Shown in pieces: positions 8,990-60,591 of a DNA stretch of 64,000 nucleotides. Each line of letters starts with the position of its first letter. Within the stretch, counting starts at the first letter, position 1. A program made the translations under genes and the position numbers. The notes beneath the pieces were generated by a model. The model did not search any database and was not told the DNA's origin. It saw only the letters and a program-made list of their open reading frames with translations. This DNA is from an uncultured beta proteobacterium. GTDB lineage: Bacteria > Pseudomonadota > Gammaproteobacteria > Burkholderiales > Casimicrobiaceae. The stretch is from contig CAVTHT010000007.1 in NCBI GenBank assembly GCA_963734575.1, forward strand, positions 288,549 through 352,548. Direction: 5' to 3'.

Positions 8990-9000
8990 TGCTCCTCCTT

Positions 9001-11073
9001 CTAGGGCGGGGTGATCATCCCATTATGGCGGAGCAGTGCCTCGATCTGCGGTGGCCGACCGCGGAACGCTACGAATGACTCGATAGCCGGTCGGCTGCCC
9101 CCTTGCGCGAGCACTTCGTCGCGGAAGCGCGCACCGGCCTCCGCCGAGAGCACGCCCGCTTCCTCGAACAGGCTGTAGGCGTCAGCGGAGAGCACCTCGG
9201 CCCATTTGTAGCTGTAGTACCCGGCGGCGTAACCGCCGGCGAAGATGTGCCCGAACGCGTGCATGAAACGGTCGTAGTCGGGGCGCGGGATCACGGCCAC
9301 CTCGTCGCGCACGGCGTCGAGCACTGCCTGCGGCGAGACCTAGGCGCTGCCGCCGTGCGGGTCGTAGGCCGAGTGGAGCAGCATGTCGAACAGCGCGAAC
9401 TCGAGCTGGCGCACCGTCGCGAGACCGCTCTGGAAGTTCTTCGCGGCGAGCATGCGGTCGAAGAGCGCGTGCGGCAGCGGCTCGCCGGTGTCGACGTGCG
9501 CGGTCATGTGCCGCACCACGTCCCATTCCCAGCAGAAGTTCTCCATGAACTGGCTGGGAAGCTCGACCGCATCCCACTCGACGCCCTGGATGCCCGACAC
9601 GCCGGCGACCTCGACGCGCGTCAGCAGCTGGTGCAGGCCGTGGCCGAATTCGTGGAAGATGGTGATCACGTCGTCGTGGGTGAAGGTCGCGGGCTTGCCT
9701 CCGACCGGCGGCCGAGCAGGTTGCAGGTGAGGTACGCGACCGGGATGCTGGAGCGTGGCCGCCGATGCGGCGGCGGTTGATCGCGTCGTCCATCCACGCG
9801 CCGCCCTGCTTGCCCGTCGCGCGCGTAGTTGTCGAGGTAGAACTGGCCGATCGATCGCGCCGTCGCGATCGACGATGTCGAAGAAGCGCACGTCGGATGC
9901 CAGGTCGGGGCCTTGCGATTCGCGGATGTGGATCGCCGTAGATCGTCTCGACGACGCGGAACAGCCCGGCGAGCACCTTGGGCTCGGGGAAGTACTGCCG
10001 CACTTCCTGCTCGGAGAACGCGTAGCGCTTCGCCTTGAGCTTTTCGGATGCGTACGCGACGTCCCACGGCTCGAGTTGCGTCGAGCCCGAGGTCGGTGCG
10101 CGCGAACGCCACGAGCTCGGCGTAGTCGCGCTCGGCGAACGGCTTCGCGCGGGCCGCGAGGTCGCGCAGGAACGCGAGCACCTCGTCGGAGCTCGCCGCC
10201 ATCTTGGGCACCAGCGACACCTCGGCGAAATTGCGGTAGCCGAGCAGCACGCTCTCCTCGTGGCGCAGCTTGAGGATCTCGCCGATGATCGCGGTGTTGT
10301 CCCAGTCGGGCTTCGCGCCGAGGTCGGACGCGCGCGTCACGAAGCGCGCGATGCATCGTCGTCGCGCAGCGTGCGGTCGTCCGCGTACTGCATGACCGGC
10401 AGGTAGCACGGCATGCGCAGGGTGAGCTTCCAGCCCTCCTTGCCGTCGCTTGCCGCCGCGGCACGCGCTTCGTCGACGACGTCCTGCGGCACGCCGGCGA
10501 GGTCCTTCGCGTCGTCCACGTACAGCGTCCAGTCGTTGGTGGCGTCGAGCACGTTGTCGTCGAACTGCGCGGACAGCGACGCGAGCTCCTCCTGCAGCGC
10601 CTTGAAGCGCGCCTTCTTCTCGTCCGGCAGCTCGGCGCCGCCGAGCCGGAAATCGCGCAGCTCGTTGTCGAGCAGCTTGCGCCGCGCCGCATCGAGCCGC
10701 GGCGAACGCCGTCGACTCGCGCAGCGCGCGATAGCGCGCGTACAGCCGCACGTCCTGCGCGAGCTCGGTGTGGAACGCCGTGATGCGCGGCAGGTTGCCG
10801 TTGTAGGCGTCGCGCAACTCGGGCGTGCTGACGACGGCGTTGAGGTGGCGCACCGCGCCCCACGCGCGCTCGAGGTGGTCGAGCGCGTCGGCGAGCGGCT
10901 CGACGACGTTGTCCCAGGTCGGCTCGCCCGTGTCCTGCGCGACCCGCTCGACGGAGGCGCGCGCCTGCTCGAGCAGCGTGTCGACCGCGGGCGTGACGTG
11001 CTCGGCGCGGATCGACTCGAAGCGCGGCAGGCCCGAGAAGTCGAGCAGCGGATTGGCGGCGGATGCGTCCATG
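9001..11073 (-). CDS. prlC: oligopeptidase A (M3 family); split over all three reverse frames by several indels
   Basis: N-terminus MDASAANPLLDFSGLPRFESIRAEHVTPAVDTLL (frame of 9666..11447). Zinc site HEFGHGLHQLL (9340..10863). C-terminus HAFGHIFAGGYAAGYYSYKWAEVLSADAYSLFEE (9001..9324). Confidence 0.85.
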
Positions 11074-11129
11074 GTATGTCCTGCAGGAAAGGGTTCAGAG
11101 ACTGGCGGACGCGGCGGGGGCCGCGTCGC

Positions 11130-11838
11130 GCCGGCGCAGCTCGGCGTCGAGCTGCGCGAGGTCGTCGGGGGTGCCGACGTTGGCCCAGCGGCCGTGGTGG
11201 ATTTCGCCGCTGACGATGCCGGCGCCGATCCAGGCCCGGAAGAGCGGGCAGCAGTTTGAGCTTCACGCCGCGGGGAAGTTCGGCGAACAGCGCGGTGTCG
11301 TAGAGCCCGATGTTGCCGAAGGTGAGGTGCGGCCCGCCATCGAGCGCGATCCGCTCCCCCGTCGAGCACGAAATCCCCGTCCGGGTGGTAGGGCGGATTG
11401 GGCACCATCACGAGGTGCGCGCGCGGCGCGCGGGCATCGACGGCCATCGCGCGCGACGCGAGCCGTGGAGCGATGCGTAGTCGAAGTCGGTGCAGATGTC
11501 GCCGCTACACGATCAGCAGGATGCCGTCCGTCAGCAGCGGGAAGGCCGTCGCGATGCCGCCCGCGGTTTCGAGCGGCTCGGCCTCGATCGACCACTGCAG
11601 GCGCACGCCGTAGCGGCGACCGTCGCCGAGCGCGTCGACGAGCCGCTGCGCGAGGTGCGAGGCGTTGATCACGATGTCGATGATGCCCGGCGCGCGCAGC
11701 GCCTCGATCTGCCGCACGATGAGCGGCTTGCCGCCGACGGCGAGCAGCGGCTTCGGCACGGCGTCGGACAGCGGACGCATGCGCTCGCCGCGCCCGGCGG
11801 CGAGGATCATGGCGCCGATGCTGCCGTCGATGCATGCG
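11130..11838 (-). CDS. murU: N-acetylmuramate alpha-1-phosphate uridylyltransferase-like nucleotidyltransferase; boundaries approximate
   Basis: MILAAGRGERMRPLSDAVPKPLLAVGGKPLIVRQIEAL nucleotidyl-transferase signature at the 3' end of reverse ORF 11505..13013. The remainder lies in another frame. Confidence 0.65.
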
Positions 11839-11849
11839 GACATGCGATG

Positions 11850-12930
11850 GCGTGTCAGAACGTGTAGCCCGACGCGCTGCGCGATGCCTTCGAGCTCGTC
11901 GAGCAGAGCGCAGCAGTGGCGTGAGCGCGGCGTAGCGCGCGCAGGCGCCGCGCAGGTACGCCATGACGCGCGGCATGTCGGCGAGGTAGCCGGCCTTGCC
12001 GTCGCGATGGTACAGCCGCGCGAAGATGCCGAGCACCTTGAGCTGCCGCTGCACGCCCATCCATTCGAAGTCGCGCCAAACGTACGCTGAAGTCGCGGTC
12101 GACCGGCAGGCCCGCCGCGCGCGCGCGCTCCCAGTAGCGCACCGCGCAGTCGATCTGCTCGTCCTCGTCCCACGCGATGTACGCATCGCGCAGCAGCGAG
12201 ACGAGATCGTAGGTGATCGGCCCGATGACCGCATCCTGGAAATCGAGCACGCCGGGATTGGGCGTGCACACCATCAGGTTGCGCGAGTGGTAGTCGCGAT
12301 GCACGTACACGCGCGGCTGGGCGAGGTTGTTGTCGAGGACGAGACGGAAGGCGTGCTCCAGCACGTCGCGCTCGCTTCGCGTCGAGCGTTGCCCCGACGT
12401 GACGGCGCGACGTACCAGTCGGGGAAGAGGTCGAGCTCGCGCCGCAGCAGCGCCTCGTCGTAGGCGGGCAGCTCGCCTTCGCGCGTGGCGAGCTGCCAGC
12501 GCACCAGCGCGTCGATGGCGTCGAGGTAGAGGTCACGCGCGGACTCGCGATCGAGCGCGGCGAGGTAGGTCCGCGACCCGAGATCGGTGAGCAGCAGGAA
12601 GCCGCGCGTCGACGTCGGACGCGAGCACCTCCGGCGCGTGCACCTGCGCCTCGCGCAGGAGCGTCGCGACGTGCACGAACGGGCGGCAGTCTTCCATCGG
12701 CGGCGGCGCGTCCATCGCGACGAGCGTGCGATGTCCGCGCCACGGGGTGCGCGAGCGTCACGCGGAAATAACGGCGGAAGCTCGCATCGTCCGAGGCCGG
12801 CGCGAGAGTGAATTCGATGCTGCCGAGGACACCCGCAGCCCAGTGCGTCAGGGAGCCAAGACGCGGCGTCACGCGCGGCACGCGCGGCGTCGGCGGGCGA
12901 GGTCGAGAGAACGGGCGCGGCAGGATCCAT
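11850..12930 (-). CDS. amgK: anomeric MurNAc/GlcNAc kinase (aminoglycoside-phosphotransferase fold); several frame switches
   Basis: SIEFTLAPASDDASFRRYFRV; RVYVHRDYHSRNLMVCTPNPGVLDFQDAVIGPITYDLVSLLRDAYI; C-terminal QLKVLGIFARLYHRDGKAGYLADMP. Immediately followed by murU, as in Pseudomonas. Confidence 0.7.
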
Positions 12931-13086
12931 CGTCGGCGGGTGCAATGCGGCGCACCGGCGGCAGCCGTGCGGCGGGAAATGGTGGCGGTCGCTGCGTTCA
13001 CGTCACACCACATGGACGAGGTGCGTCGCTGGCCAAGTAGAATGCCCGGATTCTAGCTTGGCAGCAGCGCCGTTGCATCCGCAGCA

Positions 13087-15442
13087 ATGAAGCATTCCCT
13101 CTGCTCACTCCTCGTCCTCGCCGCTGCCGGCACCATCGCGACGCGTGCAATCGCGGCGGAGGGCAACGCATCTGCCGACGCTACTCCCGCGCCGCGACTG
13201 AAGCTCGCGCCGGACCTCACGCCGCCGGCGCGCGTGCAGATGCGCGTGCCGGGTACGCGGCCGCGCGCCCGCGACGTGGCGCACGGCCCAGCCGAGCAGG
13301 GCGCGCTGTTCCTGCGCGCCGACCGGCTCGAAGGCGACGGCCGCCGACCACGTCGACGCCGAGGGGCACGTCGAGTTGCGCGCGCGCAGCGAGACGGTGC
13401 TCGCCGACTGGCTGCGCTACGACTTCACGGCGGACGAGGTCTGGGGCAAGGGCGACGTCGTGCTCCGTCGCGGGATCGACTGGATCACCGGCCCCGAAGC
13501 GAAATACCGGCCGGAGACGCAGACGGGGTTCTTCGCCACCCCGCGCTACTTACCTGGGCGAGATCGGCGGACGCGGCACCGCGAGCGAGATTCGCTTCAC
13601 CGGACCCGATCAGTTCGAGGCAACCGAGGCGCGCTTCACGACGTGCGTCGCGCCGCGCGAGGACTGGTACGTGCGCATGGGCGAGCTCGAGGTGGACCAG
13701 GCGCGCAAGATCGGCACGGCGCACCACGCGCCGTCGTTTTCCTCGGCGCGCCGATCGCCTACACGCCCTGGATGTCGTTCCCGCTCTCGGACGAGCGCAA
13801 GTCGGGCTTTCTCGCGCCGATCCTCGGCTCGACCGGCACGCGCGGCTTCGAGCTCGCGACGCCGTATTACTTCAATCTCGCTCCCAACTACGACGCGACG
13901 GTGACGCCGCGGCTCATGACCAAGCGCGGCGTGCAGCTCGGCGCGCAGTTCCGGTATCTCTTGCGAGCCGTCCGCGGCGGCGAGATGAACGTCGAGGACC
14001 TGCCGAACGATCGCGTGACGGGGACGAACCGCTACGCGCTCGTCGTGGAAGCACAACCAGAACCTCGATTCGTGGGTGAGGGCCTCGCCGCGTACTGGGA
14101 CCTCGAACAAGGTCTCCGACGACACGTATTTCTGCGGATCTCGCGGACCGCATCGCGATCACGTCGGCAGACGACGCTGCCGCGCGAGGGCGGCTTCGCC
14201 TATACGCGCGGGCCGTGGCGCTTCCTCGCGCGCGAGCAGGCGTTCCAGACGCTGCAGGATCCGAACGCTCCGCCCGTGGGAACGCCGTACAACCGCATGC
14301 CGCAGCTGGTGGCCGCGATGCGCGAGATCGACTGGCGCGGTCTCACGTTCGCCGGCACCGGCGAGTACGTGCGCTTCCGCATCCCACGCTGCCGACCGGC
14401 CAGCGCGTGTACGCGTATCCGACCGCGGCGTGGGCTCGCCAGGGCGCCGCGTGGTTCGTGACCGCCCGCGCCGGCGTGCACGCGCGTCACTACGATCTCG
14501 ACCAGCCCGGTCGATGGCCGACCACCGCCGACTATCGCAATCCCGATCACCTCGCTCGACTCCGGCCTCGTCTTCGAGCGCGACTGGCATGTCGTTCGGC
14601 CAGCAACGTGGTGCAGACGCTCGAGCCGCGCGCGTTCTACGTCTACATCCCGTATCGCGACCAGAGCCGCGATCCCCGCGTTCGACACGGCGATCGACGA
14701 TTACAACTTCGGCCAGCTCTTCAGCGAGAACCGCTATCTCGGCAACGACCGCATCGGCGACGCCAACCAGCTCACGGTCGCGCTCACCTCGCGCCTCATC
14801 GATCCGCCGACGGGGGCCGAGCGCCTGCGCGTGGCGCTGGGCGAACGCTTCTACTTCGAGAACCAGCGGGTCACGCTGAACGAGCCCGCGCGCTCCGCAT
14901 CGCGCTCCGACGTGCTGCTCCTCGCCGAAGGACGGCTGAACGAGGCCTGGTCGATGGCGGGCCTGATGCAGTACAACTTCGCCGCGTCGCGCTCGGAACG
15001 CTTCGACCTGGGCGCGCGTTACACGCCGGCGGCGGGCAGGATACTGAGCGCCAGCTACCGCTACACGCGCCAGTTCGTCGATCCTTCGGGACTCAATCTG
15101 GAGCTTCGCCAGTTCGACGTCGCGGCGCAGTGGCCCATCACCGCCAACTGGACGTTTCTCGGGCGGTGGAACTACTCGCTGGTCGATCGCAAGACCCTGG
15201 AGGGGGTGGTCGGGGTCGAGTACAATGCCGATTGCTGGGTCGTGCGCGTCGTCGCGCAGCGCCTGACGACGACCACCCAGACGACCACGACATCGGTGTA
15301 CCTGCAGCTCGAGCTCACCGGGCTCGCGCGGTTCGGCACCAATCCCCTGGAACTGCTGCGTCGCACGGTCCCGGGGTACCTGAAAACGAACGATCCCGCC
15401 GTCTCGCCCCGCGAGCGCGGCAACCTCTTTCCCGAATTCTGA
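13087..15442 (+). CDS. lptD: LPS-assembly outer membrane protein LptD (OstA/Imp); several frame switches
   Basis: Signal peptide MKHSLCSLLVLAAAGT. LSDERKSGFLAPILGSTGTRGFELATPYYFNLAPNYDATVTPRLMTKRGVQLGAQFRYL. C-terminus NYSLVDRKTLEGVVGVEYNADCWVVRVVAQR. Confidence 0.9.
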
Positions 15443-15452
15443 GGTTCATGCA

Positions 15453-16835
15453 ATGGCAGCGTCTTCCTTCGCCCCGCGGGGCGTGCATGCATGCGCGCTC
15501 CTGCTCGCCGCGCTCCTCCTTGCCGGACAGTGCGCTGCGCAGGGTCCGGCCCGCGCCGCGACTCCCGCAGCATCCCAACCGACCGCCCCGGCGCCACGGG
15601 CCTCGCGCGCCGTGCCGCTCGACCGGGTGGTCGCTATCGTCAACGACGAGGCCGTGACGCAGCACGAGCTCGACGAGCAGAAGAACGCGGCACTGGAGCA
15701 GATGCGCGCGCAGAAGGTCGCGCCGCCCGCTCCCGACGTGCTCGAGAAGCAGGTGCTCGACCGGCTGATCACCGAGCGCGCGCTGATGCAGTACGCCAAG
15801 ATGTCCGGCCTCAAGGTCGACGACGTGCAGATCGAGCGCACGATCGAGCGCATCGCGCAGGAGAACAAGCTGACGCCCGATCAGCTGCGCCAGGCCGTGA
15901 TCAAGGAAGGGATCCCGTTCGACCAGTATCGCGACGGCCTGCGCAAGGAGATCCTCGTGCAGCGCATGCGCGAGCGCGAGGTGGATGCGCGCATCCAGGT
16001 CACCGATGCCGAGGTCGACGGCCTGCTCGCGACGATGGCTGCGCAGACCGGTGGCGACACCGAATACCGCCTGGCGCACATCCTCGTGCTCGCGCCCGAC
16101 CAAGGCACGCCGGAGCAGATCGAGGCGAAGCGCCGCCGGGCCGAGGAAGCGTTGCAGCAGATCAGGTCCGGCGCGGATTTCGCGCAGGTCGCGGCGGGCT
16201 TCTCCGATGCTCCCGATGCGCTGCAGGGTGGCGCGCTGGGCTGGCGCGCGCCGGCGCGACTGCCGTCGGTGTTCGCCGAGCCCGTGCGCACGATGAAGCC
16301 CGGCGACGTGTCCGGCGTGCTCCGTTCGGCAAGCGGCTTCCATATCGTCAAGCTGCTCGAGACGCGCAACGTGAACGCGCCGACCGTCGTCGAGCAGACC
16401 CACGCTCGTCATATCCTCATCAAGGTCAACGAGGCCACGTCCGAAGCCGAGGCGAAGGCTCGCATCGAGCGCATTCGCGACCGCATCGACGGCGGCAACG
16501 CGAAGTTCGAGGACCAGGCGCGGCTCAATTCGGAGGACGCATCGGCGGTCAAGGGCGGCGACCTCGGCTGGATCTCGCCCGGCGACACGGTGCCGGATTT
16601 CGAGAACGCGATGAAGACGCTGCAACCGGGCGAGCTCTCGGCGCCGGTGCGCACGCCGTTCGGCTGGCACCTGATCCAGGTGGTCGAGCGGCGTACGCAG
16701 GACATCACCGCGGAACGCAAGCGCGATCAGGCGCGCCTCGCGCTCCGTCAGCGCAAGTCGGACGAGGCGTTCCAGGACTGGGTCCGGCAGACGCGCGATC
16801 GCGCCTACGTCGAGATCAAGGCCGAGGAGCGGTAG
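15453..16835 (+). CDS. surA: periplasmic chaperone / peptidyl-prolyl isomerase SurA
   Basis: Intact ORF with signal peptide, SurA N-domain (VPLDRVVAIVNDEAVTQHELDEQ) and two parvulin domains. It is 10 bp downstream of lptD. Confidence 0.9.
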   Translation: MAASSFAPRGVHACALLLAALLLAGQCAAQGPARAATPAASQPTAPAPRASRAVPLDRVVAIVNDEAVTQHELDEQKNAALEQMRAQKVAPPAPDVLEKQVLDRLITERALMQYAKMSGLKVDDVQIERTIERIAQENKLTPDQLRQAVIKEGIPFDQYRDGLRKEILVQRMREREVDARIQVTDAEVDGLLATMAAQTGGDTEYRLAHILVLAPDQGTPEQIEAKRRRAEEALQQIRSGADFAQVAAGFSDAPDALQGGALGWRAPARLPSVFAEPVRTMKPGDVSGVLRSASGFHIVKLLETRNVNAPTVVEQTHARHILIKVNEATSEAEAKARIERIRDRIDGGNAKFEDQARLNSEDASAVKGGDLGWISPGDTVPDFENAMKTLQPGELSAPVRTPFGWHLIQVVERRTQDITAERKRDQARLALRQRKSDEAFQDWVRQTRDRAYVEIKAEER

Positions 16836-19323
16836 CAAGTCTCTGCGCGACACCACGTGACGCGCGGTTGCGCAGAGGCTCGCTGACCGTCACGCGCGGC
16901 CACAGCGCGACGCGCAGCAGGCGCGGGCGCGTCCCGGAGGCGAATCGCAGCTCGATGCGCAGCTGATCGAAACGCGCGTGCGGGCCTGCAGGCAGCGCCA
17001 CGGCCACGCCTCCCGACGTCGTTTTCCAGCCGCGGTCCTGCGAAGCGATGGCACGCCAGGGCCGCTGCGCACTCTCGCGACCCGCGATGCGCACGCTGCG
17101 CAGGGCCTGCGCGTCCTCGAGGCCGAGCACGACCTCACCGAACGTTGCCGGATCGAAAACCAGCTCCGCCGGCGAGACCAGCGTCACGGCGTCGCCATCC
17201 GGTGCAAGCGCGAGTGCACCCGGCTGCGGAATCATGGTGCCCGTCATGGCGGTCCAGCCGTCGTTGTCGGCGAGCTGCGGCGTGCCGAACGTCCACAGGC
17301 GCGCACCGCGCGGCACGTTGGCGTGCGACAGCATGAAGTCGCGCGCCGCATCCTCGAACGGCGTGTTGCGCCACGCCGTGAACGTGACGTACCCCGGCTT
17401 GCCGGCGTTGACGCCGTTCGAGCCGTTCCACGCCATCGGCGAGACGAAGCGCCCGCCGAAGTTGAACACGTCGCGCAGGCTCCGGTAGCCCACCGCGTAG
17501 GAAGGCTGTTCCGCGGGATGGCGCAAATCGGCGGTGTTGATCTCGACGACCGCCCATCCCGGATCGAGCGCGCGAAACGTGGCGAAAAGCGACCCCGGCG
17601 CTTCCATGCGGATCGCGTTGACCGCCGACGGACCGTACAGGATCGCACCCAGGTGGCCACTGGCCGGGATCGCGCCTTCCACACTCATGCCGCCGGTGTC
17701 GTAGTTCTTCATCGGGCTCGCGATGTGCACCGCGAACGGCCGCGCGGTTTCGTGCGGCGCCATGAATCCCTGCGATGACCAGATGCGCTCCGGAGCAATG
17801 CCCGCCTGCGCGAGCCACGCGGAGAGCTCGTCGTAGTGCAGATCGACGATGTGCCGGCGAAACGTCTCCCACTCGCGCGTCCAAGGATCGTCCCAGAACG
17901 CGGGCCGGCCATCCTTCGACTCGCGCGGGAAGCTGCGCGGCGGATCCACGTCGTCCCAGCGCGCGAAGCGCTTGCCGGCGAGCCGGCTCGCCTCTGCCAG
18001 GGTCAACGGCTTGGCGCGACGATAGCGGCGCAGGTCCGGCACGCCGGCCCCGCCCTTCCCGGCATACGGCCCGGTGCCCGCGAGCCAGTCGCGGAATTGG
18101 CGCAGCGTGCCGGGGTTGTAGTCGTACCACTGCGTCTGGTCGAAGAACGGATTGAGGTAGGTGTCGGGATCGAGATTGACGCCCACGAAAAGGTCCGGGT
18201 GCTCGCGCGCGAACGCCGCGACGATCCTGCCCGCCGCCTGCAGATTGCGTCGCTTGTAGCGCCGCACGTCGCGCGCATAGACGTTGAACGTCAGCGTGCG
18301 TGCGAGCTCGGGCGCTTCCTGCGAGCCCGGCAGGTGGCGCAGGTAGTCGTCCGCCATGACGGCGTTCTTCTCGTTCCACTGGCAGTTCGCGACATCCTGC
18401 TCGAGATGATCGTTGAGATCCCAGTCCGGCACGTCGCACGAGGCATCGGCCCATACCCCGCCATTCAGCGTGAACAGCACCGGAATGCGATGCCGTACGG
18501 CGTACGCGATGGTATTGCCGAGCGAATCCTCGGCAATGCGCCGCGCCCCGCAGCGCCGCTCGATGTCCCAATCGGGATCGAATACGAAGTCGGCGGCGGC
18601 GCCGCGCGTGGTGCGCAGGTACAGGATCGGCACGCGCATCCCGGTGCGTACCGTCGGCGACGCGTAGCTCGCGTACCACGTGTCGAGCTCTGCCGCGCCG
18701 CCCAGGCCGATCGCCGACAGCGCGGGCAGCACGTGGAATGGTGTCGCGGCGGCAGGACGCGGGAACTCCGCGAAGCGATGCAGCGCGGCGGGCTCGATCA
18801 CGTTCCTCGTCGCGAGCACGCTTTCGCGGCCGTCGCGTGCGATCGCCACGATCTCGACGCGGCGCCGATCGACCGGAGGCACCGCATCGGGCAGGGTCGC
18901 GGTGATTGCGAATCCCGGCGCGCCACTGTCGGGATAACCCGCCGGCGCGTCGGCGCCCTCGGGTTTCGGAAGCCCGTAGCGTGCGGCGAACGTTTGGCCA
19001 TCGATGCGCACCTCGACGCCGCGGATGCCGGCGGTGTCGAGCGCCCATCCCGCGAGCGTGACGGTCGGGCCGATGAGCGCGTCGCCAGGCGGAGCGGTCA
19101 CGCTGCCGATCGGATCGGAGGATTGCGCCGCGGGTTGTGTCGTGGGCTGGGTTGCGGAGACGGGCGCGCGGTCTGCGCGTCCGCGCGTGGCGAGCGCGTA
19201 CAGCTCGATGCCGCTGATCGCCGCGACGATGGCCAGTACGCCGAGGAAGAGCGGCCACGTGCGGCCCGCGGCGGGCATGGAGGGCGTCGGCGCAACGTGT
19301 GCGCGTGTTGGGCGGACGCGCAC
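16816..19323 (-). CDS. large membrane-anchored protein of unrecognised family (paralog B of a tandem pair)
   Basis: Intact 835-aa ORF with GC3-rich codon usage. N-terminal TM helix, Pro/Thr/Ala linker, an Ig-like domain (TLAGWALDTAGIRGVEVRIDG), then a large conserved domain. About 50% identical to 19366..21849. Confidence 0.7.
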   Translation of the reverse strand: MRVRPTRAHVAPTPSMPAAGRTWPLFLGVLAIVAAISGIELYALATRGRADRAPVSATQPTTQPAAQSSDPIGSVTAPPGDALIGPTVTLAGWALDTAGIRGVEVRIDGQTFAARYGLPKPEGADAPAGYPDSGAPGFAITATLPDAVPPVDRRRVEIVAIARDGRESVLATRNVIEPAALHRFAEFPRPAAATPFHVLPALSAIGLGGAAELDTWYASYASPTVRTGMRVPILYLRTTRGAAADFVFDPDWDIERRCGARRIAEDSLGNTIAYAVRHRIPVLFTLNGGVWADASCDVPDWDLNDHLEQDVANCQWNEKNAVMADDYLRHLPGSQEAPELARTLTFNVYARDVRRYKRRNLQAAGRIVAAFAREHPDLFVGVNLDPDTYLNPFFDQTQWYDYNPGTLRQFRDWLAGTGPYAGKGGAGVPDLRRYRRAKPLTLAEASRLAGKRFARWDDVDPPRSFPRESKDGRPAFWDDPWTREWETFRRHIVDLHYDELSAWLAQAGIAPERIWSSQGFMAPHETARPFAVHIASPMKNYDTGGMSVEGAIPASGHLGAILYGPSAVNAIRMEAPGSLFATFRALDPGWAVVEINTADLRHPAEQPSYAVGYRSLRDVFNFGGRFVSPMAWNGSNGVNAGKPGYVTFTAWRNTPFEDAARDFMLSHANVPRGARLWTFGTPQLADNDGWTAMTGTMIPQPGALALAPDGDAVTLVSPAELVFDPATFGEVVLGLEDAQALRSVRIAGRESAQRPWRAIASQDRGWKTTSGGVAVALPAGPHARFDQLRIELRFASGTRPRLLRVALWPRVTVSEPLRNRASRGVAQRLATAPRP

Positions 19324-19365
19324 GCGGAAAATGGCGGGGGCCTGGAGGTTGTGAAGGTGCGCGGC

Positions 19366-21849
19366 TCAGCGCGCGGCGATGCTGCCTGTGCCGCTCGCGC
19401 GCTGCTGTCGCGACGTTGCGGCGCGCGCCGGTGCGGGATAGACGATGGCGATTCTATCAATCCGTGCATCGGCCGTCGCGGCCGCCACGGTCACCACAAT
19501 GCCGAGCTCCTGCACGATCGCACGTTGCGCCTGCCATCGCGCCGGCCACGTCACCGGCACGTTCCAGCCCGCCGCGGAGCGCGCGAGCTTGCCCGCGGAT
19601 ACGACGCCGCTGACGTCGACCCAGGACGATTCAGGCGACGTCCGCGCCAGCACCTGCACCGACGCGACTTCCGCCGGCGCGGCCAATCCGAGCACGAGAT
19701 GCGCGCTGCGGTCCGTGCGGATCACCTGGTCGGGCGGGGAGCGCAACACCAACCGGTTGCCGGGACAATGCGCGTCCACGTGACCGCCGCTCGCTGCCAG
19801 CGGGCCGCAGTCGAGGCTCCAGCCGTCGTCGTCGGCATGTCCGGGCGCGCCGAAGGTCCACAGCCGCGACCCGAGCGGCAGGTCGGCATGCGCCACCAGG
19901 AAATCACGCATGGCGGCTTCACCCGCCGTGTTGCGCCAGGACGTGTACGGCACGTAGCCGGGCTGCCCGGCGAAGAGACCGTTGGCGCCGTTCCACGCCA
20001 TCAGCGACACCTGACGTGCATCGAAGTTGAAGAGATCGCGGAACGCGCGGTATGAAACCGCATAGCCGGGCATTTCCGTCGGCTTCTTGAGGTCGGTCGG
20101 GTTCATCTCCACCACCGCCCAGCCGGGGTCCATGCGCGCGATCGTGGCGAAGAGGCTGTGGCCATTGGCGAGCGGATTGTCGTTGGCGGCCGCGGGTCCG
20201 TACAGGATGGCGCCGAGATGGCCGGCGCTGGGGATCGCGCCCTCGATCGATACGCCTGCCGAATCGTAGTTCGGGCTGTCGCCGCGGATGCGTATGGCGA
20301 TCGGCTTCAATCCCGGATCCGGTGTCATGAATCCCTGCGCGGAGAAGATCTTCGCTTCGGGAATGCCCGTCGCGTGCACCCATTCGGAGAGCTCGCTGTA
20401 GTGGAGCGCGACCACGTGCTTGCGAAACGCATCCCACTCGAGGAACCATGGCTCTTCCCAGAAGGGCGTCTCGCCCGACGGCACGCTGCGCGGATCTTCC
20501 GGCAGGCGGCGCGGCGGATCGACTTCGCTCCAGCGCGACCAGTTGCGGCGCGCCATGCGGTTCACCTGCGCGAGCGTCAGCGACGGCGTGCGGCGGTAGC
20601 GCGACAGGTCCGGCACGCCGGGTTGCGGCTTGCCGCCGTACGCGCCGGTGCCCGAGAGCCACTCGCGGAACTGCCGCAGCATGCCCGGGTTGTAGTCGAA
20701 CCAGTGACCGCGGCGTACGAACGGGTTCATGTACGTGTCGGCGTCGAGATTCACGCCGACGAAGAGGTCGGGATGCTCGCGGGCGAACGCGGCGATGATG
20801 GCGGCAGCGGCCTGCAGGTTGCGGCGCTTGTATGCACGCACCTGCGTCGCGTACACGTGATAGGTGAGGCTGCGGCCGAGCTCGGGCGATTCCGTGGAGC
20901 CGGGCAGGTGCTTCAGGAAATCGTCGGCGAGCACCTGGTTGTCCTGGTTCCACTGGCAGTTCGCAGGATCGCGCTCCAGCGCGTCGTTCACGTCCCATTC
21001 CGGCGTGTCGCACGTCGCATCGCCCCAGATCCCGCCGTTCAGGTTGAACTGCACGGGAACGCGCTTCTCGACCGCCCAGGTAATTACGTTGCGCAGGTTG
21101 TCCTCGGCGACGGGCCGGTCGCGGCACTTGTGGCCGAGATCGAACGTGGGATCGAACGCCCAGTCGTTGGCGGCGCCCTTCGTCGTGCGCAGATAAAGGA
21201 TCGGCACCGAGATGCCGACGCGCTGCGTGCCGGAGACGTAGGCGCGATACTCGGTGTCCGTCTCGGCAGCGCCACCCGCGGCGACACCCGACGTCATCAT
21301 CAGGAACGCGAACGAATCATCGTTGCTTGCGCGTGACGGGGTCTGCGCGCGCCATAGCGACAATGCCTCGGGCGCGATCGCGCTGCGCATGCCGAGTGTC
21401 GTGGCCACACCCGCGCGATTGATCGCCACCACTTCGACCGGCTGGCGCTGCAGCACCGAAGTGTCGAGCGGTTCGGCGAACTCGAAGCCGGCGGCACTCG
21501 AATCGGGATAGCCCGGCCTTGCCTGCGCAACGTCGGGCCGCGGGATGCCGTAGCGGGCACGCTGCGCTTTGCCGCCGATGCGCACCTCGACGCGATCGAT
21601 GCCGCTCCGATCGAGCGCCCAGCCGGTGATGTGCACTTCGGTGCCGACGATCGTCTCGCCGGTCGGTGCGTCGATCCATCCGACGGGTGCAGTCGCGACC
21701 GCGGGCGCAGCGGACGCCGCGGGCGCGGGTGTCGGAGCCGGCGGCGTGGTGACGACCCCGAGACGGAACCAGAGGCCCGCGCTCAGCAGGATGGCGACGA
21801 GCGCCGCCAGAGCGACGCGCACGCGACGGTCGCGCCAGGAAAGGATCAC
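19366..21849 (-). CDS. large membrane-anchored protein of unrecognised family (paralog A of a tandem pair)
   Basis: Intact 827-aa ORF with the same architecture as paralog B (HITGWALDRSGIDRVEVRIGG ... ILYLRTTKGAANDWAFDP ... AREHPDLFVGVNLDADTYMNPF ... ILYGPAAAN). Confidence 0.7.
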   Translation of the reverse strand: MILSWRDRRVRVALAALVAILLSAGLWFRLGVVTTPPAPTPAPAASAAPAVATAPVGWIDAPTGETIVGTEVHITGWALDRSGIDRVEVRIGGKAQRARYGIPRPDVAQARPGYPDSSAAGFEFAEPLDTSVLQRQPVEVVAINRAGVATTLGMRSAIAPEALSLWRAQTPSRASNDDSFAFLMMTSGVAAGGAAETDTEYRAYVSGTQRVGISVPILYLRTTKGAANDWAFDPTFDLGHKCRDRPVAEDNLRNVITWAVEKRVPVQFNLNGGIWGDATCDTPEWDVNDALERDPANCQWNQDNQVLADDFLKHLPGSTESPELGRSLTYHVYATQVRAYKRRNLQAAAAIIAAFAREHPDLFVGVNLDADTYMNPFVRRGHWFDYNPGMLRQFREWLSGTGAYGGKPQPGVPDLSRYRRTPSLTLAQVNRMARRNWSRWSEVDPPRRLPEDPRSVPSGETPFWEEPWFLEWDAFRKHVVALHYSELSEWVHATGIPEAKIFSAQGFMTPDPGLKPIAIRIRGDSPNYDSAGVSIEGAIPSAGHLGAILYGPAAANDNPLANGHSLFATIARMDPGWAVVEMNPTDLKKPTEMPGYAVSYRAFRDLFNFDARQVSLMAWNGANGLFAGQPGYVPYTSWRNTAGEAAMRDFLVAHADLPLGSRLWTFGAPGHADDDGWSLDCGPLAASGGHVDAHCPGNRLVLRSPPDQVIRTDRSAHLVLGLAAPAEVASVQVLARTSPESSWVDVSGVVSAGKLARSAAGWNVPVTWPARWQAQRAIVQELGIVVTVAAATADARIDRIAIVYPAPARAATSRQQRASGTGSIAAR

Positions 21850-21975
21850 AGCAAACGATGTTGCGGGAGACGGAGCGTGGCGCTACGCGGCATGGAAGCG
21901 CGCTCGCCGCGCACGGTGCGGAGCAGTCGACCCTCGGAGTGCGCGAACCCGTCGTGCCGCACTCCGATGCGGCTA

Positions 21976-22182
21976 CTCGACCTCGTTCTGGTAGACGTAC
22001 GCCTGCTGCTGAACGCGGCCCTGGTCCATGCGCCGGCGTTCCGCCAGATCCTGCGGCGGCTTGTCCCACCAGATCGCGCGGCCGTTCTGCTGCTCGCGAT
22101 CGAGCTCGGGCCTGTCGGCCTTCAGCTCGCGGATGAACTTCGTGAAGTCGGATTCGTAGTGTCGGGAAGGCAACATCATGAT
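21976..22182 (-). CDS. small conserved DUF3460-like protein
   Basis: C-terminal 69 aa of reverse ORF 21973..23331: MMLPSRHYESDFTKFIRELKADRPELDREQQNGRAIWWDKPPQDLAERRRMDQG. It lies just downstream of the methyltransferase on the same strand. Confidence 0.45.
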
Positions 22183-22220: not shown

Positions 22221-23405
22221 TCATTCCGGCGCGACGTCCTGCCCCGCGGAGCCCGCCACGGTGCGCGTGGGACGACCCGTGACCAGCTCGAAACGGAACA
22301 GGCGGCACTCGATCGCGCCATTCCACAATGGCGTACGCGCCGAAGGGCGCAGGCCGATGAGCTTTGGCAGGCGCAGATCGCCCGTGAAGAGGCACGCGGT
22401 CCACCCGGCGAAGTGCTGCTTCAGTGCGTCGCCGAGGCGCGGATAGAACGTGGCGAGGCGCGCCTCGTCCTCGAGGCGCACGCCGTAGGGGGGATTGGCC
22501 ACGAGCACGCCGACAGGCGCCGGAGCCGGGCGTTGCAGCACGTCCGTGTGCTCGATCCCGAGCCATCCTCCGATGCCGGCCTGTGCGGCATTGAGCCCGG
22601 TCTGACGCACGGCTCCCTCGTCGCGGTCGCTCGCGAAGATCGGCGGGATCGTCGGATCGGGACGCACGCGATCGCGTGCCCGCTGGCGCAGGCGTTGCCA
22701 CGCGGGTCCGTCGAACCACGCGAGCTTCTGGAACCCGAAAGTGCGGGCGAGGCCCGGTGCACGATCGGCCGCCATCATCGCGGCCTCGATCGCGATGGTG
22801 CCGCTGCCGCACATCGGATCGAGGAATGGCGTGCCCGCGCTCCATCCGGACAGCAGGACCAGACCCGCGGCAAGATTCTCGCGCAGCGGCGCCACGTCGG
22901 CTTCGCGCCGGTAGCCGCGCTTGAACAGCGGCTCGCCCGAAGTGTCGAGATAGATCGTCGCTTCCGTCGCGGTGAGGAACACGTGCACGCGGACGTCGGG
23001 CCGCTGCTTGTCCACCGAGGGCCGCGTGCCGTGATGCGCGCGAAAGACATCGCAGACGCTGTCCTTGACCCTGAGGGTCGCGAACTCCAGGCTGCGCAGC
23101 GGCGAGCGCGTCGCCGCGGTGTCGACGCGCAGCGTGCGATCGGCGCGGAAGAGCTCCGGCCAGCGGACCTTCTGCACGAGCGCGTACAGGTCGTCCTCGC
23201 TGCGGTAGCGCCCGTGCGCGACCTGCCACAGCACCCGGCTCGCGAGGCGCGACTCGAGATTGACGGCATAGACGAGCGACAGCGGGCCCGAGAACGACAC
23301 GCCGCCGTCGACCGGCGCCACGTACTGGCACTCGAGCGCGGTGAGCTCGGCAGCGAGGGCCGCCTCGAGGCCGCGCGGGCAGGGCGCGAAGAACCGCTCG
23401 ATCAT
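22221..23405 (-). CDS. THUMP-domain class I SAM-dependent RNA methyltransferase (RlmL N-terminal-domain-like)
   Basis: THUMP and methyltransferase motifs LDPMCGSGTIAIEAA and VLVANPPYGVRL in an intact 394-aa ORF. Confidence 0.8.
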   Translation of the reverse strand: MIERFFAPCPRGLEAALAAELTALECQYVAPVDGGVSFSGPLSLVYAVNLESRLASRVLWQVAHGRYRSEDDLYALVQKVRWPELFRADRTLRVDTAATRSPLRSLEFATLRVKDSVCDVFRAHHGTRPSVDKQRPDVRVHVFLTATEATIYLDTSGEPLFKRGYRREADVAPLRENLAAGLVLLSGWSAGTPFLDPMCGSGTIAIEAAMMAADRAPGLARTFGFQKLAWFDGPAWQRLRQRARDRVRPDPTIPPIFASDRDEGAVRQTGLNAAQAGIGGWLGIEHTDVLQRPAPAPVGVLVANPPYGVRLEDEARLATFYPRLGDALKQHFAGWTACLFTGDLRLPKLIGLRPSARTPLWNGAIECRLFRFELVTGRPTRTVAGSAGQDVAPE

Positions 23406-23408
23406 CGC

Positions 23409-24199
23409 GCTACTTGAGCAGCCGCCGGCGCGTCAGCACCAGTGCCACGAAGAATCCCGCGCAGCCGTACGCCACCAGCACGAGGAGATGCAGCGCGATG
23501 TTTGCCGGTACCTGTGCCGTGAGCAAGCGGCCGGGCAAGATCGATCGCGTGCTTGAGCGGCAGGAACGCGGCGACCGCCTGCAGCGCTGCGGGAAGCTGC
23601 TCGACGGGAAAGAACACGCCCGACAGGAGCAGCATCGGGGTGAGCACGAGCGTGAAGAAGTACGTGAAGAAGTCGTACCCTGGCGCGAGTGCGGTCATGA
23701 TGAGGCCGAAGCTGCCGAACGCGAGCCCGATCAGGAAGCCGAGCGGCAGGATCCACAGCGCGTACCAGGTGTGCCCGTAGCCGAGCAGGATCAGCACGCA
23801 CAGGATCGCCGCCGTGGACATGAGCGCCTTCGTCGCGCACCAGATCCATTCCGCGACGAGCACGTCGTCGAGCGACAGCGGGGCGTTGATGATCGCGTCC
23901 CATGTGCGCTGCACGAACATGCGCGAGAACGCCGAGTACATGCCCTCGAAGCTCGCGGTGAACATGGCGCTCTGGCACACCATGCCCGTACCGATGAAGG
24001 CGATGTAGGGCATGCCGCCGACCACCGGCACGAAGGCGCCGATGCCGTAGCCGAGCGCCAGCATGTAGAGCAGCGGATCGGCGATGTTGCCGAGCACGCT
24101 CGCGATGGCGAGCTTGCGCCAGACGAGCAGGTTGCGCCTCCACACGGGCGTCCAGCGCAGCGACAGCTCCGGCGGTTTCAGCATGACGGTGGCGTTCAT
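23409..24199 (-). CDS. ABC-2 type transporter permease (NodJ/YadH-like); frame switch near 23520-23560
   Basis: MNATVMLKPPELSLRWTPVWRRNLLVWRKL and six TM segments. The true C-terminus (…AYGCAGFFVALVLTRRRLLK*) lies in another frame and ends at 23409. Confidence 0.75.
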
Positions 24200-24236
24200 G
24201 GTGCGTTCCCGGGTCGAGTGAAGGCGCGCGTGCCGC

Positions 24237-25160
24237 TCAGTAGCCGCGGCGCCGATCGATTTCGTTGCGCAGGGGCTCCCCGGCGCGCGCACGGCGGAGG
24301 TTGTCGAGGAGTTGCGCCGCCGCCACCTCCGGGCGTGGCGTGCCGGCGACATGCGGCGTGCACAGCACGCCCGGATGCCTCCAGAGCGCGCTTGACGGCG
24401 GCAGCGGCTCCTCCGGAAAGACGTCGAGCGCGGCGCCCGCGATGTGGCCCTCGTCGAGTGCCTCCAACAGCGCCGCATGGTCCAGTATCCCGCCGCGCGA
24501 CACGTCGATGACGAATGCGCCGCGCGGCAGCGCGTGCAATGCGTCGGCGTCGAGCAGCCCGCGCGTCTCGCGAGTGAGCGGCAGGGTGCACGCGAGGACG
24601 TGCACTTTCCGCAGGAGCTCGCGCAGGCCATCGGGCCCCCACGCCGCGCCGTCCGCGTCGCTCGACTTCGCGCGCCGCCATGCAGTCACGTCATAGCCCA
24701 GCGCGCGCAGTGCGCTTGCTACGGCCTGCCCATTGAGGCCGTAGCCGAGCACGCCCACGCGCTGCTGCGCCTCGGGCGCGGGCGCGAAACGCTCCCAGCG
24801 TCCCTCCAGGTGCTGCGCTTCGAGGCGCGCGAGATCGCGATGGAAACGCAGCGTCATCAGCGTGACGTATTGCGCGATGCGTTGCGCCTGCAACGGGTCC
24901 ACCGGGCGCACGACCGGAACGTCGGGCAGGTCGGGGGTCGCGAGGATCTCGTCGGCGCCGGCACCGGCGCAGGCGATGAAGCGCAGGCGCGGCAATGCAT
25001 TCGCGACGCCCGGTCGCAGGCGGAACGCGAGCAGCGCCTCGACGTCGTCGACGGCCGCGGTTGCGGGGTCCGTCTCGAACGTCTCGTGCGGCGCCAGCGT
25101 GCGCAGCGCGTCGAGCTGCTGCTGCACGAACGACGAGGTGGGGAGCACGAGGACGGACAT
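24237..25160 (-). CDS. D-isomer-specific 2-hydroxyacid dehydrogenase (glyoxylate/hydroxypyruvate reductase-like)
   Basis: NAD-binding GVLGYGLNGQAV. Catalytic region GAFVIDVSRGGILD...CTPHVAG. Confidence 0.8.
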   Translation of the reverse strand: MSVLVLPTSSFVQQQLDALRTLAPHETFETDPATAAVDDVEALLAFRLRPGVANALPRLRFIACAGAGADEILATPDLPDVPVVRPVDPLQAQRIAQYVTLMTLRFHRDLARLEAQHLEGRWERFAPAPEAQQRVGVLGYGLNGQAVASALRALGYDVTAWRRAKSSDADGAAWGPDGLRELLRKVHVLACTLPLTRETRGLLDADALHALPRGAFVIDVSRGGILDHAALLEALDEGHIAGAALDVFPEEPLPPSSALWRHPGVLCTPHVAGTPRPEVAAAQLLDNLRRARAGEPLRNEIDRRRGY

Positions 25161-25261
25161 GGCGGGTACGGCGAAACGCGCTACTGTACACGCTTGACAC
25201 CTGCCGCCGCGCTCACCTAACGTCTCGCGGTCATCCACGAAGCCTTCACCAAAGGTCGCTC

Positions 25262-26247
25262 ATGCTTCCCATGCTGTCGCGCGTCACCCGCCGGATCATG
25301 CTCGCTGCATTGCTCGCGCTGGTGGCGGGCGCCGTGCACGCGCAGGGGAGCTATCCCAACCGGCCGATCAGGATCGTCGTGCCGTATCCGGCCGGCGCTC
25401 TCACCGATCTTCTCGCGCGGGCGATCGGCGAGCGCCTGGCGGCGAACCTGAAGCAGCCCGTCGTGATCGACAACAAGCCCGGCGCCGGCACGCTCGTCGG
25501 CGCCGAGTTCGTCGCGAAGTCCCCGCCCGACGGATACACGCTGCTCATGGCAACGAGCACGACCCTCGGCATCAGCCCCGCGCTGTACAAGCCCTCGCCG
25601 GTGAACCCGGTGAAGGACTTCGCGCCGGTCTCGCCGGTCGGCACGGTTAACTTCTTCCTGATCGCGAACCCGGCCTTTCCCGCGTCCAGCGTGCGCGAGA
25701 TGATCGACGTGCTGAAGCGCGAGCCGGGCAAGTACAACTACGCCTCGGTCGGCAACGGCAGTCCGCATCATCTGTTCATGGAAGCGCTGAAAAGCGAGCA
25801 CGGGCTCGTCGTCCAGCACGTGCCGTACAAGGGAACGCAGGCCGCCCTGCCCGATCTCCTTACCGGGCAGGTGCATTTCATGTTCTGCGATGCCACGGTC
25901 GCGGTGCCGAACATCCAGGCGGGGAAGGTCAAGGCCCTCGGCACGTCGGCCGCCCGGCAGACCACGCTGATCGCCACCGTGCCGCCGGTCGCGGCCACCG
26001 TACCGGGTTTCGACTGGCAGGCATGGCAGGGCATCGTCGCGCCCGCGGGCACGCCGAAGGACGATCGTCGCGCTGCTCGCTGGCGAGCTGCAGAAGATCC
26101 AGGCGACGCCGGAATTTCGCGAGCAGCTCCTGAAGTTCGGCATGGAGCCGTTCGCGCCGCAGACGCCGGAACAGTTCGCGGCGATGATCGAGGCCGAGCA
26201 GCCGCGCTGGGCGCGCGCGATCAGGGATTCGGGCGCGAAGATCGACT
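25262..26247 (+). CDS. Bug-family (TctC-like) tripartite tricarboxylate transporter substrate-binding protein; frame switch near 26060
   Basis: Signal peptide plus NRPIRIVVPYPAGALTDLLARAIGERL...KPGAGTLVGAEFVAKSPPDGYTLLMATS. The C-terminus (...EQFAAMIEAEQPRWARAIRDSGAKID*) lies in another frame. Confidence 0.8.
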
Positions 26248-26354
26248 AGCGAAACCCGCCTCGCGGCCGCACGGGCACGCCGGCCGGGAGTGCGGTGCGG
26301 TACGGCGACCCGCGAATTTCTCGCTGCACGGCCACACCTACTTCACCGGAGTCC

Positions 26355-27347
26355 ATGTTGAGTCCCGTCATCGACGTCCACACGCATTGCCTGACCGAAG
26401 AGTGGTTCCAGCTCCTGCAGCAGCACGGCGCGCCGCGCTACAGCGTCAAGCCGGTGCTCGGCGGGCTGCGGGCAATCCACCTCGACGGTGCACCGTTCAT
26501 GACGCCGGTGCCGCCGATGTTCGACTACGACCTGCGCATCCGGACGATGAACGAAGTGGGCGTCGACATCGGCATCGTCTCGCTCACGTGCCCCAACTGC
26601 TACTGGGGCGGTCCCGAGATCAGCCTCAAGGCGGCGCGGATCATGAACGACGACATGACCGCCGCGCGCCGCGCGTATCCCGACCGCCTGCGCTGGTTCG
26701 CGTCGGTGCCGTGGGAGTATCCGGAGCTCGCGCTGCCGGAGCTCGAGCGCGCGTGCGCCGCCGGCGCGTCCGGCGTGATGGTGCTTGCCAACGTCAATGG
26801 CCGGCCCCTGACCGATCCCGCGTTCGCCACGATCTGGGAAGCGATCGATGCGCGCGGCCTGCCGGTGCTGGTGCATCCGACGGCGCCGCCGGGCGTGGCG
26901 GAGATGGACATGATGCGGTTCCAGCTCACCGCGTCCCTCGGCTTCACGTTCGATACGTCGCTCGCCGTGGCGCGCATGATCTTCGACGGCTTCTTCGATC
27001 GCTACCGGAGGCTTCGCATCATCGCCGCGCATGGCGGTGGTGCGCTCCCGTACATCGTGTCGCGCATGGACCAGTGCTTCGACAACATTCCGGCCTGCCG
27101 CGAGAAGATCGCGGTGCGGCCGTCGGAATACCTGCCCGCGATCTACGCCGACGCCGTGGTATTCGCGCCCGAGGTGCTCGATCTCTGCGTCAAGGTGTTC
27201 GGCGCCGACAACGTGATCTACGGCTCCGACTATCCGCACACGATCGGCGACATGCCAGGGTGCCTGCGGCGGGTCAACGGCCTGCCGGAGAGCGCGCGCG
27301 ACAAGGTCCGCGGGCGCAACGCCGAGCGGGTGTTCAACCTCTCGTGA
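26355..27347 (+). CDS. amidohydrolase-2 (ACMSD-like) family metal-dependent hydrolase/decarboxylase
   Basis: VIDVHTHCLTEEW ... VLVHPTAPP ... IAAHGGGALPYIVSRMD ... IYGSDYPH. Intact ORF. Confidence 0.8.
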   Translation: MLSPVIDVHTHCLTEEWFQLLQQHGAPRYSVKPVLGGLRAIHLDGAPFMTPVPPMFDYDLRIRTMNEVGVDIGIVSLTCPNCYWGGPEISLKAARIMNDDMTAARRAYPDRLRWFASVPWEYPELALPELERACAAGASGVMVLANVNGRPLTDPAFATIWEAIDARGLPVLVHPTAPPGVAEMDMMRFQLTASLGFTFDTSLAVARMIFDGFFDRYRRLRIIAAHGGGALPYIVSRMDQCFDNIPACREKIAVRPSEYLPAIYADAVVFAPEVLDLCVKVFGADNVIYGSDYPHTIGDMPGCLRRVNGLPESARDKVRGRNAERVFNLS

Positions 27348-27374
27348 TGCGGGCGTTGCGACCGCAGAGGGTCC

Positions 27375-28289: not shown

Positions 28290-28376
28290 CGTCGCGCGGC
28301 GACGTGCTGCGGCAGGCGTTGCGCGACCGGCGCGGCGGGCGCGTCGCGCGGCGGCGTGGTCAGCACGGGCGGCGCC

Positions 28377-29014: not shown

Positions 29015-29017
29015 GCG

Positions 29018-29327: not shown

Positions 29328-29403
29328 GACGGGGCGGAGTGGCGGACGCGCTCCGCCGGAAGGGGATCGCCAGGCGAGCGGCTGACGAACGTTGGATTAT
29401 ATC

Positions 29404-30535: not shown

Positions 30536-30542
30536 GGTCGAC

Positions 30543-31166: not shown

Positions 31167-31291
31167 CATGCGCATCATGATCGCACGGCGTGCGTGCGAT
31201 CGCGGACGAGCGGCCGTTCCAGGCACGTCGACGGGAGCGCAGGCGGGCTCGCTGGGCGCGTCACCTCGGCACCAGCGCGCGCGGCGGCCGC

Positions 31292-60580: not shown

Positions 60581-60591
60581 AGAGCGCGCGC

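Follow-up and report, generated by a model that had tools for sequence, protein, structure and literature searches.

What might be the function of two long, adjacent and mutually related proteins that belong to no recognised family, and whose genes converge on surA? The locus lies in a stretch of 64,000 nucleotides from an uncultured beta proteobacterium of the Casimicrobiaceae (GenBank assembly GCA_963734575.1, contig CAVTHT010000007.1, positions 288,549 to 352,548 of the forward strand), which is referred to here as the window and numbered from its first nucleotide. The pair, termed A and B, had been singled out in an original prediction made from the letters of the DNA alone. Our analysis of their sequences and predicted structures points to a candidate new family of inner-membrane-anchored glycan-processing enzymes whose modelled core resembles the glycoside hydrolases (GHs) of clan GH-A. 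With modest confidence we favour the reading that A and B are inner-membrane-tethered, periplasm-facing glycosidase-like enzymes that process a decorated envelope or secreted glycan. The two genes are:

Paralogue A: 16816..19323, minus strand; 835 residues from GTG 19323; A-type subfamily.
Paralogue B: 19366..21849, minus strand; 827 residues from GTG 21849; B-type subfamily of the GH-A-like family.

Both frames were recovered exactly, at the predicted lengths of 835 and 827 residues and on the same strand, in a six-frame list of open reading frames (ORFs). On sequence grounds they are genuine genes and not high-GC chance ORFs, because they are 52% identical to each other across 689 residues, have hundreds of homologues each (at least 868 scored for A, and 777 at E<=1e-50 for B) and correspond to identical database entries. 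The database model of A (P0001, 820 residues) starts at ATG 19278, 15 residues downstream of the GTG, and that of B (P0292, 818 residues) starts 9 residues downstream of its GTG; both are 100% identical to the proteins described here. Inspection of the alternative starts of A and B revealed no clear ribosome-binding site favouring either, and the gap between the genes is 42 nucleotides with the GTG starts, or 42 or 87 depending on the choice made, which leaves the transmembrane (TM) segments of both proteins unaffected. The G+C content of the window is about 70%, and long chance ORFs are therefore common in it. A 739-residue ORF at 17836-20055 on the plus strand, antisense to both A and B, is an unsupported shadow ORF of this kind and shows that ORF length alone is no evidence in this window.

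That the family could not be named from sequence, as originally stated, was upheld by every search made, with Pfam, NCBIfam and the PDB (single sequences and profiles) all blank for the core. Pfam searches with A and B at E<=1 returned no glycoside hydrolase model and nothing covering the core of about 480 residues, and those at E<=10 with 24 diverse members, spanning 27-56% whole-length identity to A and core identity down to 32%, again returned no glycoside hydrolase. The profiles of GH42 (PF02449, Glyco_hydro_42), GH35 (PF01301) and GH5 (PF00150) had no significant match to A or B. No core match was obtained from NCBIfam with A and B, from the PDB by phmmer with both proteins, or from the PDB by hmmsearch with two profiles.

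Structural models of the two proteins were built with AlphaFold2 (AF2), for A from an alignment of 42 sequences (A1; predicted local distance difference test score (pLDDT) 82.9, predicted template modelling score (pTM) 0.83) and for B from alignment A2 (pLDDT 83.6, pTM 0.85). Both models present a common plan, consisting of a TM helix, a Pro/Thr/Ala-rich linker, an immunoglobulin (Ig)-like β-sandwich, eight β/α units, a C-terminal β-sandwich and a disordered tail, with the following parts:

A, TM anchor, residues 23-50: 19174..19257, minus strand; sole Kyte-Doolittle window above 1.6; AF2 helix 23-50.
A, disordered Pro/Thr/Ala-rich linker: residues ~48-67; pLDDT <50 at 48-67.
A, Ig-like β-sandwich, Big_7-like, residues 72-176: 18796..19110, minus strand; PF17957 at 18.9 bits; AF2 strands.
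A, predicted (β/α)8 barrel core, residues ~196-670: 17314..18738, minus strand; with loop and subdomain insertions.
A, C-terminal β-sandwich, residues 675-810: 16894..17301, minus strand; AF2 strands 675-809.
A, disordered tail: residues 815-835, pLDDT <50; overlaps surA.
B, TM anchor, residues ~7-33: 21751..21831, minus strand; hydropathy; AF2 helix 7-24.
B, Ig-like β-sandwich, residues 56-158: 21376..21684, minus strand; PF17957 at 21.3 bits; AF2 strands.
B, predicted (β/α)8 barrel core, residues 180-655: 19885..21312, minus strand.
B, C-terminal β-sandwich, residues 662-803: 19441..19866, minus strand; AF2.

The suggestion of a glycoside hydrolase-like TIM barrel, offered at first only as a possibility, was borne out by a (β/α)8 barrel in both models. 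GH42, GH35 and GH164 enzymes are among the best structural matches (e.g. 4UCF, 1KWK, 8Z43, 8FAA and 6T5O), at 9-13% identity. As modelled, the core is a (β/α)8 barrel of the clan GH-A kind that lies outside any family nameable by the searches made. It shares its barrel with the GH42, GH35 and GH164 members of this clan, and the proteins differ from these hydrolases in bearing an N-terminal membrane anchor and an Ig domain, and, in A, large insertions at residues ~290-350 and 416-506; unlike in GH42, no trimerisation domain was detected in A or B.

The remaining parts of the architecture agree with those first proposed. Hydropathy identifies one hydrophobic segment near each N-terminus and none elsewhere, the linker that follows it is of low confidence in AF2, and the quoted motifs ILYLRTT, NLDPDTY.NPF and MAWNGSNG are invariant columns of the 42-sequence alignment. 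The Ig-like domain emerges both as a β-sandwich in AF2 and as matches to Big_7 (PF17957) that lie below the gathering threshold of 24.1 bits in A and B; the homologous domain of the relative P0127 scores 46.8 bits, and some homologues of A and B carry precomputed PF17957. Big_7, which the N-terminal sandwich resembles, is an accessory domain and does not define the family. Foldseek also returned matches of about 130-145 residues to CBM29, CBM86 and CBM6-type modules, which may correspond to the C-terminal β-sandwich of A. With regard to location, the sequence RDRRVR precedes the anchor of B, in keeping with an N-in topology. An A-L-A|T motif follows the helix of A, which might act as a signal anchor or as a cleaved signal peptide. 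A and B have three conserved cysteines in common (C258, C296 and C314 of A, the first two invariant in alignment A1), and these, with the lone N-terminal helix and the Arg-rich residues before it, fit an extracytoplasmic location. Both proteins are predicted to be type-II (N-in, C-out) and anchored in the inner membrane, with their bulk in the periplasm.

To locate a candidate active site, strands were counted from the DSSP strings of the AF2 models and residues were mapped by strand order. The strands of A are β1 196-198, β2 229-233, β3 282-286, β4 379-384, β5 514-521, β6 559-563, β7 591-596 and β8 626-629, the first being clearer in B (180-185), and a helix at 655-666 of A closes the eighth β/α unit. 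By this count R237 comes after β2, N287 after β3, D385 and D387 after β4, and W632 after β8, with Y563 on β6 and E594 on β7. An order of Arg, His or Asn, acid, Tyr, Glu and Trp is characteristic of GH5 and clan GH-A, and the conserved residues of A thus appear, as far as strand order in the model can tell, to fall where this clan puts its signature residues. A conservation alignment of 28 sequences, reaching down to 32% identity, has R237 in every member, and Y563 and E594 in each of the 27 that extend over these two sites. Position 385 is Asp in 26 sequences and Glu in two, and D302, D305, D387, D401, D542 and E657 of A are likewise kept. The codons of the presumptive catalytic pair are:

A, candidate acid/base codon, D385: 18169..18171, minus strand.
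B, candidate acid/base codon, D369: 20743..20745, minus strand.
A, candidate nucleophile codon, E594: 17542..17544, minus strand.
B, candidate nucleophile codon, E581: 20107..20109, minus strand.

The nucleophile would be the invariant Glu on β7 (E594 in A, E581 in B), which DSSP order places on the seventh strand and which is kept down to the most distant sequences of the alignment. The acid/base would be the carboxylate at the end of β4 (D385 in A, D369 in B), Asp or Glu across the family. The end of β4 in A reads N-L-D385-P-D387, with its Asn replaced variably in the 28 sequences (N/T/S/G/A), so the candidate acid/base differs from that of clan GH-A in being an Asp within N-L-D-P-D rather than part of an Asn-Glu pair, the carboxylate itself still being there. 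The analysis shows the genes, their topology signals, the modelled fold, the pattern of conservation and the company that the genes keep; that A and B are catalytic, which residues would catalyse and what class of substrate they would use, we infer.

From these features we propose that A and B would act as glycosidases or transglycosidases anchored on the periplasmic side of the inner membrane. Their target would be a cell-envelope or secreted polysaccharide, such as the O-chain of lipopolysaccharide (LPS) or an exopolysaccharide, that is to be cut or remodelled, and that may be O-acylated and/or methylated in related genomes. By analogy, their mode of action might be like that of 'biosynthetic' hydrolases of the PslG type. 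Normal Psl production depends on both the membrane location and the catalytic glutamates of PslG, a glycoside hydrolase associated with the inner membrane (PMC6813494). An N-terminal membrane anchor followed by a periplasmic GH domain is also seen in A and B, on the evidence of hydropathy and AF2 helices and with the localisation predicted. PslG, however, is a GH39 protein of 442 residues, from an established CAZy family and encoded inside the psl operon, whereas A and B have about 830 residues, an extra Ig domain, no recognised family and a housekeeping locus without a polysaccharide operon. Location in a polysaccharide biosynthesis operon is a feature that A and B lack, and that their distant relatives at loci L084, L088 and L092 possess.

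How widely such proteins occur, and in what company, was addressed by a profile search of 1.84 billion representatives, which matched 4203 proteins at E<=1e-3 and 435 at E<=1e-30. Many of the matches, numbering thousands, are Ig-repeat proteins that cover profile positions 50-170 only; the core-bearing proteins are at least 32% identical to A across the core. Among GTDB species representatives 232 loci have a relative, and the locus counts given here are from the best 80, with some neighbourhood counts from about 90 fetched loci. Nearly all of the best 80 are from Casimicrobiaceae or from unclassified betaproteobacterial or Burkholderiales metagenome-assembled genomes (MAGs). The immediate neighbours of the pair in the window are:

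surA: 15453..16835, plus strand; Pfam SurA_N and two Rotamase domains; convergent neighbour, context only.
DUF3460 micro-protein: 21973..22179, minus strand; 68 residues, 94% identical to the Pfam-annotated DUF3460 of L003; context only.
THUMP/RlmL-type RNA methyltransferase: 22221..23405, minus strand; Pfam RlmL_1st, THUMP and UPF0020; upstream on the same strand, context only.

DUF3460 lies upstream of the family gene in 63 of the 80 species loci and a convergent surA downstream in 59, with both in 52; lptD, an amgK/murU-like pair and peptidase M3 around the locus are collinear with the window. The convergent overlap of the 3' end of A with surA was confirmed at 20 bp (16816-16835), and L003, the closest relative, has an identical 20-bp overlap between its A-type gene and surA. 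The THUMP methyltransferase and DUF3460 do lie upstream on the same strand, as reported, DUF3460 being separated from B by 123 nucleotides, but the proposal that they form an operon with A and B is not supported. In 41 of about 90 fetched loci a divergent class-I S-adenosylmethionine-dependent methyltransferase gene is found just upstream, between DUF3460 and the family gene, and so frequent an insertion, at about half of the loci, speaks against a conserved operon. To judge from gene order, the linkage of THUMP, DUF3460 and family gene is synteny and not a conserved transcription unit, and the surA overlap, together with the same-strand position after THUMP and DUF3460, is conserved synteny that gives no evidence of common function. 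A promoter and terminator scan of 16.5-23.6 kb yielded no promoter-like site and terminator-like sites no commoner than in shuffles, and is therefore uninformative on operon structure. The order lptD-surA-pdxA-rsmA is the arrangement in E. coli and Pseudomonas; here pdxA is detached from surA, as had been noticed, and lies about 31 kb away on the other strand (47745-48629, minus).

Compared with the collinear L003, many genes of the window (8390-15440 and 23430-31170) change frame part-way, while A and B keep theirs, in line with the original remark that they are free of disruption. Broken in this way are lptD (13087-15442, frames 1 then 2), the amgK-like APH, murU-like NTP_transferase and peptidase M3 genes (three frames each), and also the ABC-2 permease, TctC, a 102-residue ORF and a GNAT gene; surA, A, B, DUF3460, THUMP, VanZ, Amidohydro_2 and 2-Hacid_dh are intact. 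Because lptD, an essential gene, is among those broken, the breaks suggest assembly or sequencing errors rather than decay. Homopolymer-associated sequencing error was considered as their source and is not supported, the junctions not being at homopolymers.

A further question is how the two genes came to stand side by side. They had been described as tandem paralogues, and the adjacency holds, while a local duplication does not: the clades of A and B are both old, and each is represented by orthologues at this locus in other genomes. L003 has a single copy, an A orthologue at 77% identity, and the best relatives of B are at most 63% identical. A B-type gene occupies the same position in 8 of the 80 species loci, and these are the loci that B joins in a neighbour-joining tree of the core, where A and L003 belong to another and larger clade. 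A recent tandem duplication is rejected on this ground. As read from sequence comparison, the pair is a co-occurrence of two long-diverged paralogues, which could have originated by ancestral duplication followed by differential loss, or by insertion through recombination. Both types are also found between DUF3460 and surA in one other genome, L090, where the A-type gene comes first, followed by DUF4331 and then the B-type gene. Two family members also lie close together at L088 (2728-6000 and 10001-13129) and at L082 (6001-8304 and ~9123-11309); the second copy there comes from a much more divergent clade (~33-36% identity in L082), and multiplicity at one locus therefore arose more than once. 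Homologues of the DUF4331, TPR and HupE_UreJ_2 trio are found in the window at 57860-61623, about 40 kb from the pair, and in L001, L018, L020 and L056 this trio is directly downstream of the family gene, before surA where surA is within the flank.

The long divergence of the two subfamilies makes a difference in substrate or linkage probable. More specific hints come from the neighbourhoods of relatives, which recurrently hold genes for glycan decoration or biosynthesis: 1) A fusion of about 1370 residues, found in about 14 clusters (45-100% identity), joins an AT3 acyltransferase domain (PF01757), an extra TM helix (392-410), the Ig domain and the core. Its example P0274 (L084, 10001-14113; relatives P0411-P0422) is surrounded by a GT2, a methyltransferase-GT2 fusion, further AT3 genes, TPR proteins and an ABC-2 transporter pair, and this is an ABC-transporter-type polysaccharide cluster. 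2) Stand-alone AT3 genes adjoin B-type genes at L089 (65 bp upstream, same strand), at L090, and in seven of the eight B-type species loci. 3) Methyltransferase genes flank P0274 and also P0156, a protein with a core identity of 38% that is encoded downstream of lptD-surA on the same strand. 4) P0127 (L088) is placed between two sulfatase-family genes, near GT2, epimerase, GT4, UDP-glucose dehydrogenase and Bac_transf genes and a second divergent family member. 5) P0147 (L092) is found among TPR/GT41, methyltransferase and hexapeptide-transferase genes. The neighbourhoods of P0145 and P0288 are uninformative or mixed. Because B-type genes usually travel with an AT3 acyltransferase, the difference between the types may be one of acylated against non-acylated forms of the glycan.

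The Pfam names NodS-like, NodI_C, ABC-2, deacetylase and AT3 at related loci also brought to mind a Nod-factor-like system, which was not adopted, since the methyltransferase fits generic class-I models better than NodS and the deacetylase is present in three loci only; neither NodC nor NodA was seen. The window has a NodJ-like ABC-2 permease (23430-24199, adjoining THUMP) and a NodI_C-type ABC ATPase (27378-28274), separated by TctC, Amidohydro_2 and 2-Hacid_dh as in L003, and closer together in L001.

AT3 proteins acylate extracytoplasmic glycans, and AT3-SGNH proteins have an 11th TM helix by which their SGNH domain comes to lie in the periplasm; it has been asked whether a partner, 'SGNH or otherwise', is also required by AT3-only proteins (PMC9558356). 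The fused relatives of A and B are laid out like the AT3-SGNH proteins OafA, OafB and OatA, with their module C-terminal to AT3 via an additional TM helix, but the module is an Ig domain with a GH-A-like barrel instead of SGNH. Such a module is not among the AT3 partners listed in PMC9558356 and one further paper on AT3 proteins, which are SGNH, racemase (VanT), NRF and α-HGSNAT. A and B of the window themselves are without an AT3 domain or an AT3 neighbour.

Several of these observations weigh against our preferred reading of A and B as tethered glycosidase-like enzymes of a decorated glycan. No AT3 gene was found in the 64-kb window by tblastn with three AT3 queries (E<=1e-6); the window also lacks a methyltransferase of the recurrent type, a polysaccharide cluster and a glycosyltransferase adjoining A or B, whose neighbours there are housekeeping genes (surA, lptD and the RNA methyltransferase). 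The canonical clan GH-A Asn-Glu acid/base motif is not present at β4 of A, and the top structural matches are mostly exo-acting catabolic enzymes. The best of these, namely exo-β-galactosidases, β-mannosidases, exo-glucosaminidases and β-amylases, would fit a scheme where A and B are catabolic periplasmic glycosidases that free sugars from imported environmental oligosaccharides and have no role in the cell's own envelope, and the hosts of the family are indeed soil bacteria. We regard this scheme as unlikely, as family genes have no recurrent neighbour of catabolic type, such as a sugar transporter or regulator, the recurrent partners are glycan-decorating or biosynthetic genes, the position is a fixed housekeeping one in 52 of the 80 species, and membrane tethering fits a surface-proximal substrate.

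The AT3 associations could be read differently, with the barrel as a periplasmic partner of AT3 acyltransferases that binds the glycan acceptor and helps or catalyses acyl transfer, doing without SGNH what the SGNH domain does in OafA or OatA, and that cleaves no glycosidic bond. The fusions mirror the AT3-11th helix-SGNH layout, stand-alone AT3 genes adjoin B-type genes, and the need of AT3-only proteins for a partner has been raised (PMC9558356). This too we find improbable: most A-type loci, like the window, have no AT3 gene within reach, conserved carboxylates are found at the positions of the glycosidase catalytic pair, and no Ser/His-type acyl-transfer signature was seen, none having been looked for. 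The location at lptD-surA prompts yet another thought, that of a tie to outer-membrane biogenesis, with A and B either lacking catalytic activity and serving the envelope as glycan-binding or scaffold proteins, or acting on peptidoglycan as Cwp19- or GHL10-like enzymes. An active site is indicated by residues that do not vary down to 32% identity (E594, Y563, R237 and several Asp), Cwp19 and PgaB match less well in structure than do GH42, GH35 and GH164, and an orientation convergent to surA gives no evidence of co-expression, so that we deem this view very unlikely.

Returning to the glycosidase-like reading, a bolder form of it may be entertained, although we give it little credence. The Ig domain and the GH-A-like barrel would constitute an undescribed periplasmic module working with AT3, joined to it in some lineages and a protein of its own in Casimicrobiaceae; the module, AT3 and the methyltransferases would form a dedicated system of LPS or exopolysaccharide remodelling, which cuts, transglycosylates or re-decorates the glycan at the surface of the inner membrane, ahead of its transport. 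Differently decorated forms would then fall to the A and B types, and the barrel would represent a new CAZy family with an Asp acid/base in place of the Asn-Glu motif of the clan.

The fold and general mechanism are familiar; the family has no name in any of the libraries searched, its candidate acid/base motif is atypical, and its fusion to or adjacency with AT3 is not among the partnerships listed in the two papers on AT3. It is otherwise an ordinary uncharacterised enzyme family, and it overturns nothing known. If our reading is correct, A and B would represent a candidate new glycoside hydrolase (CAZy) family, with the fold of clan GH-A and an atypical acid/base motif, and their ectodomain would be a tractable biochemical target. 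Most Casimicrobiaceae, which belong to the betaproteobacteria and were recovered here almost wholly as MAGs, have the family at a fixed locus. Through its fusion or adjacency to AT3, the question of how acyl groups are handed over to glycans would gain an extracytoplasmic partner domain of a third kind, in addition to SGNH.

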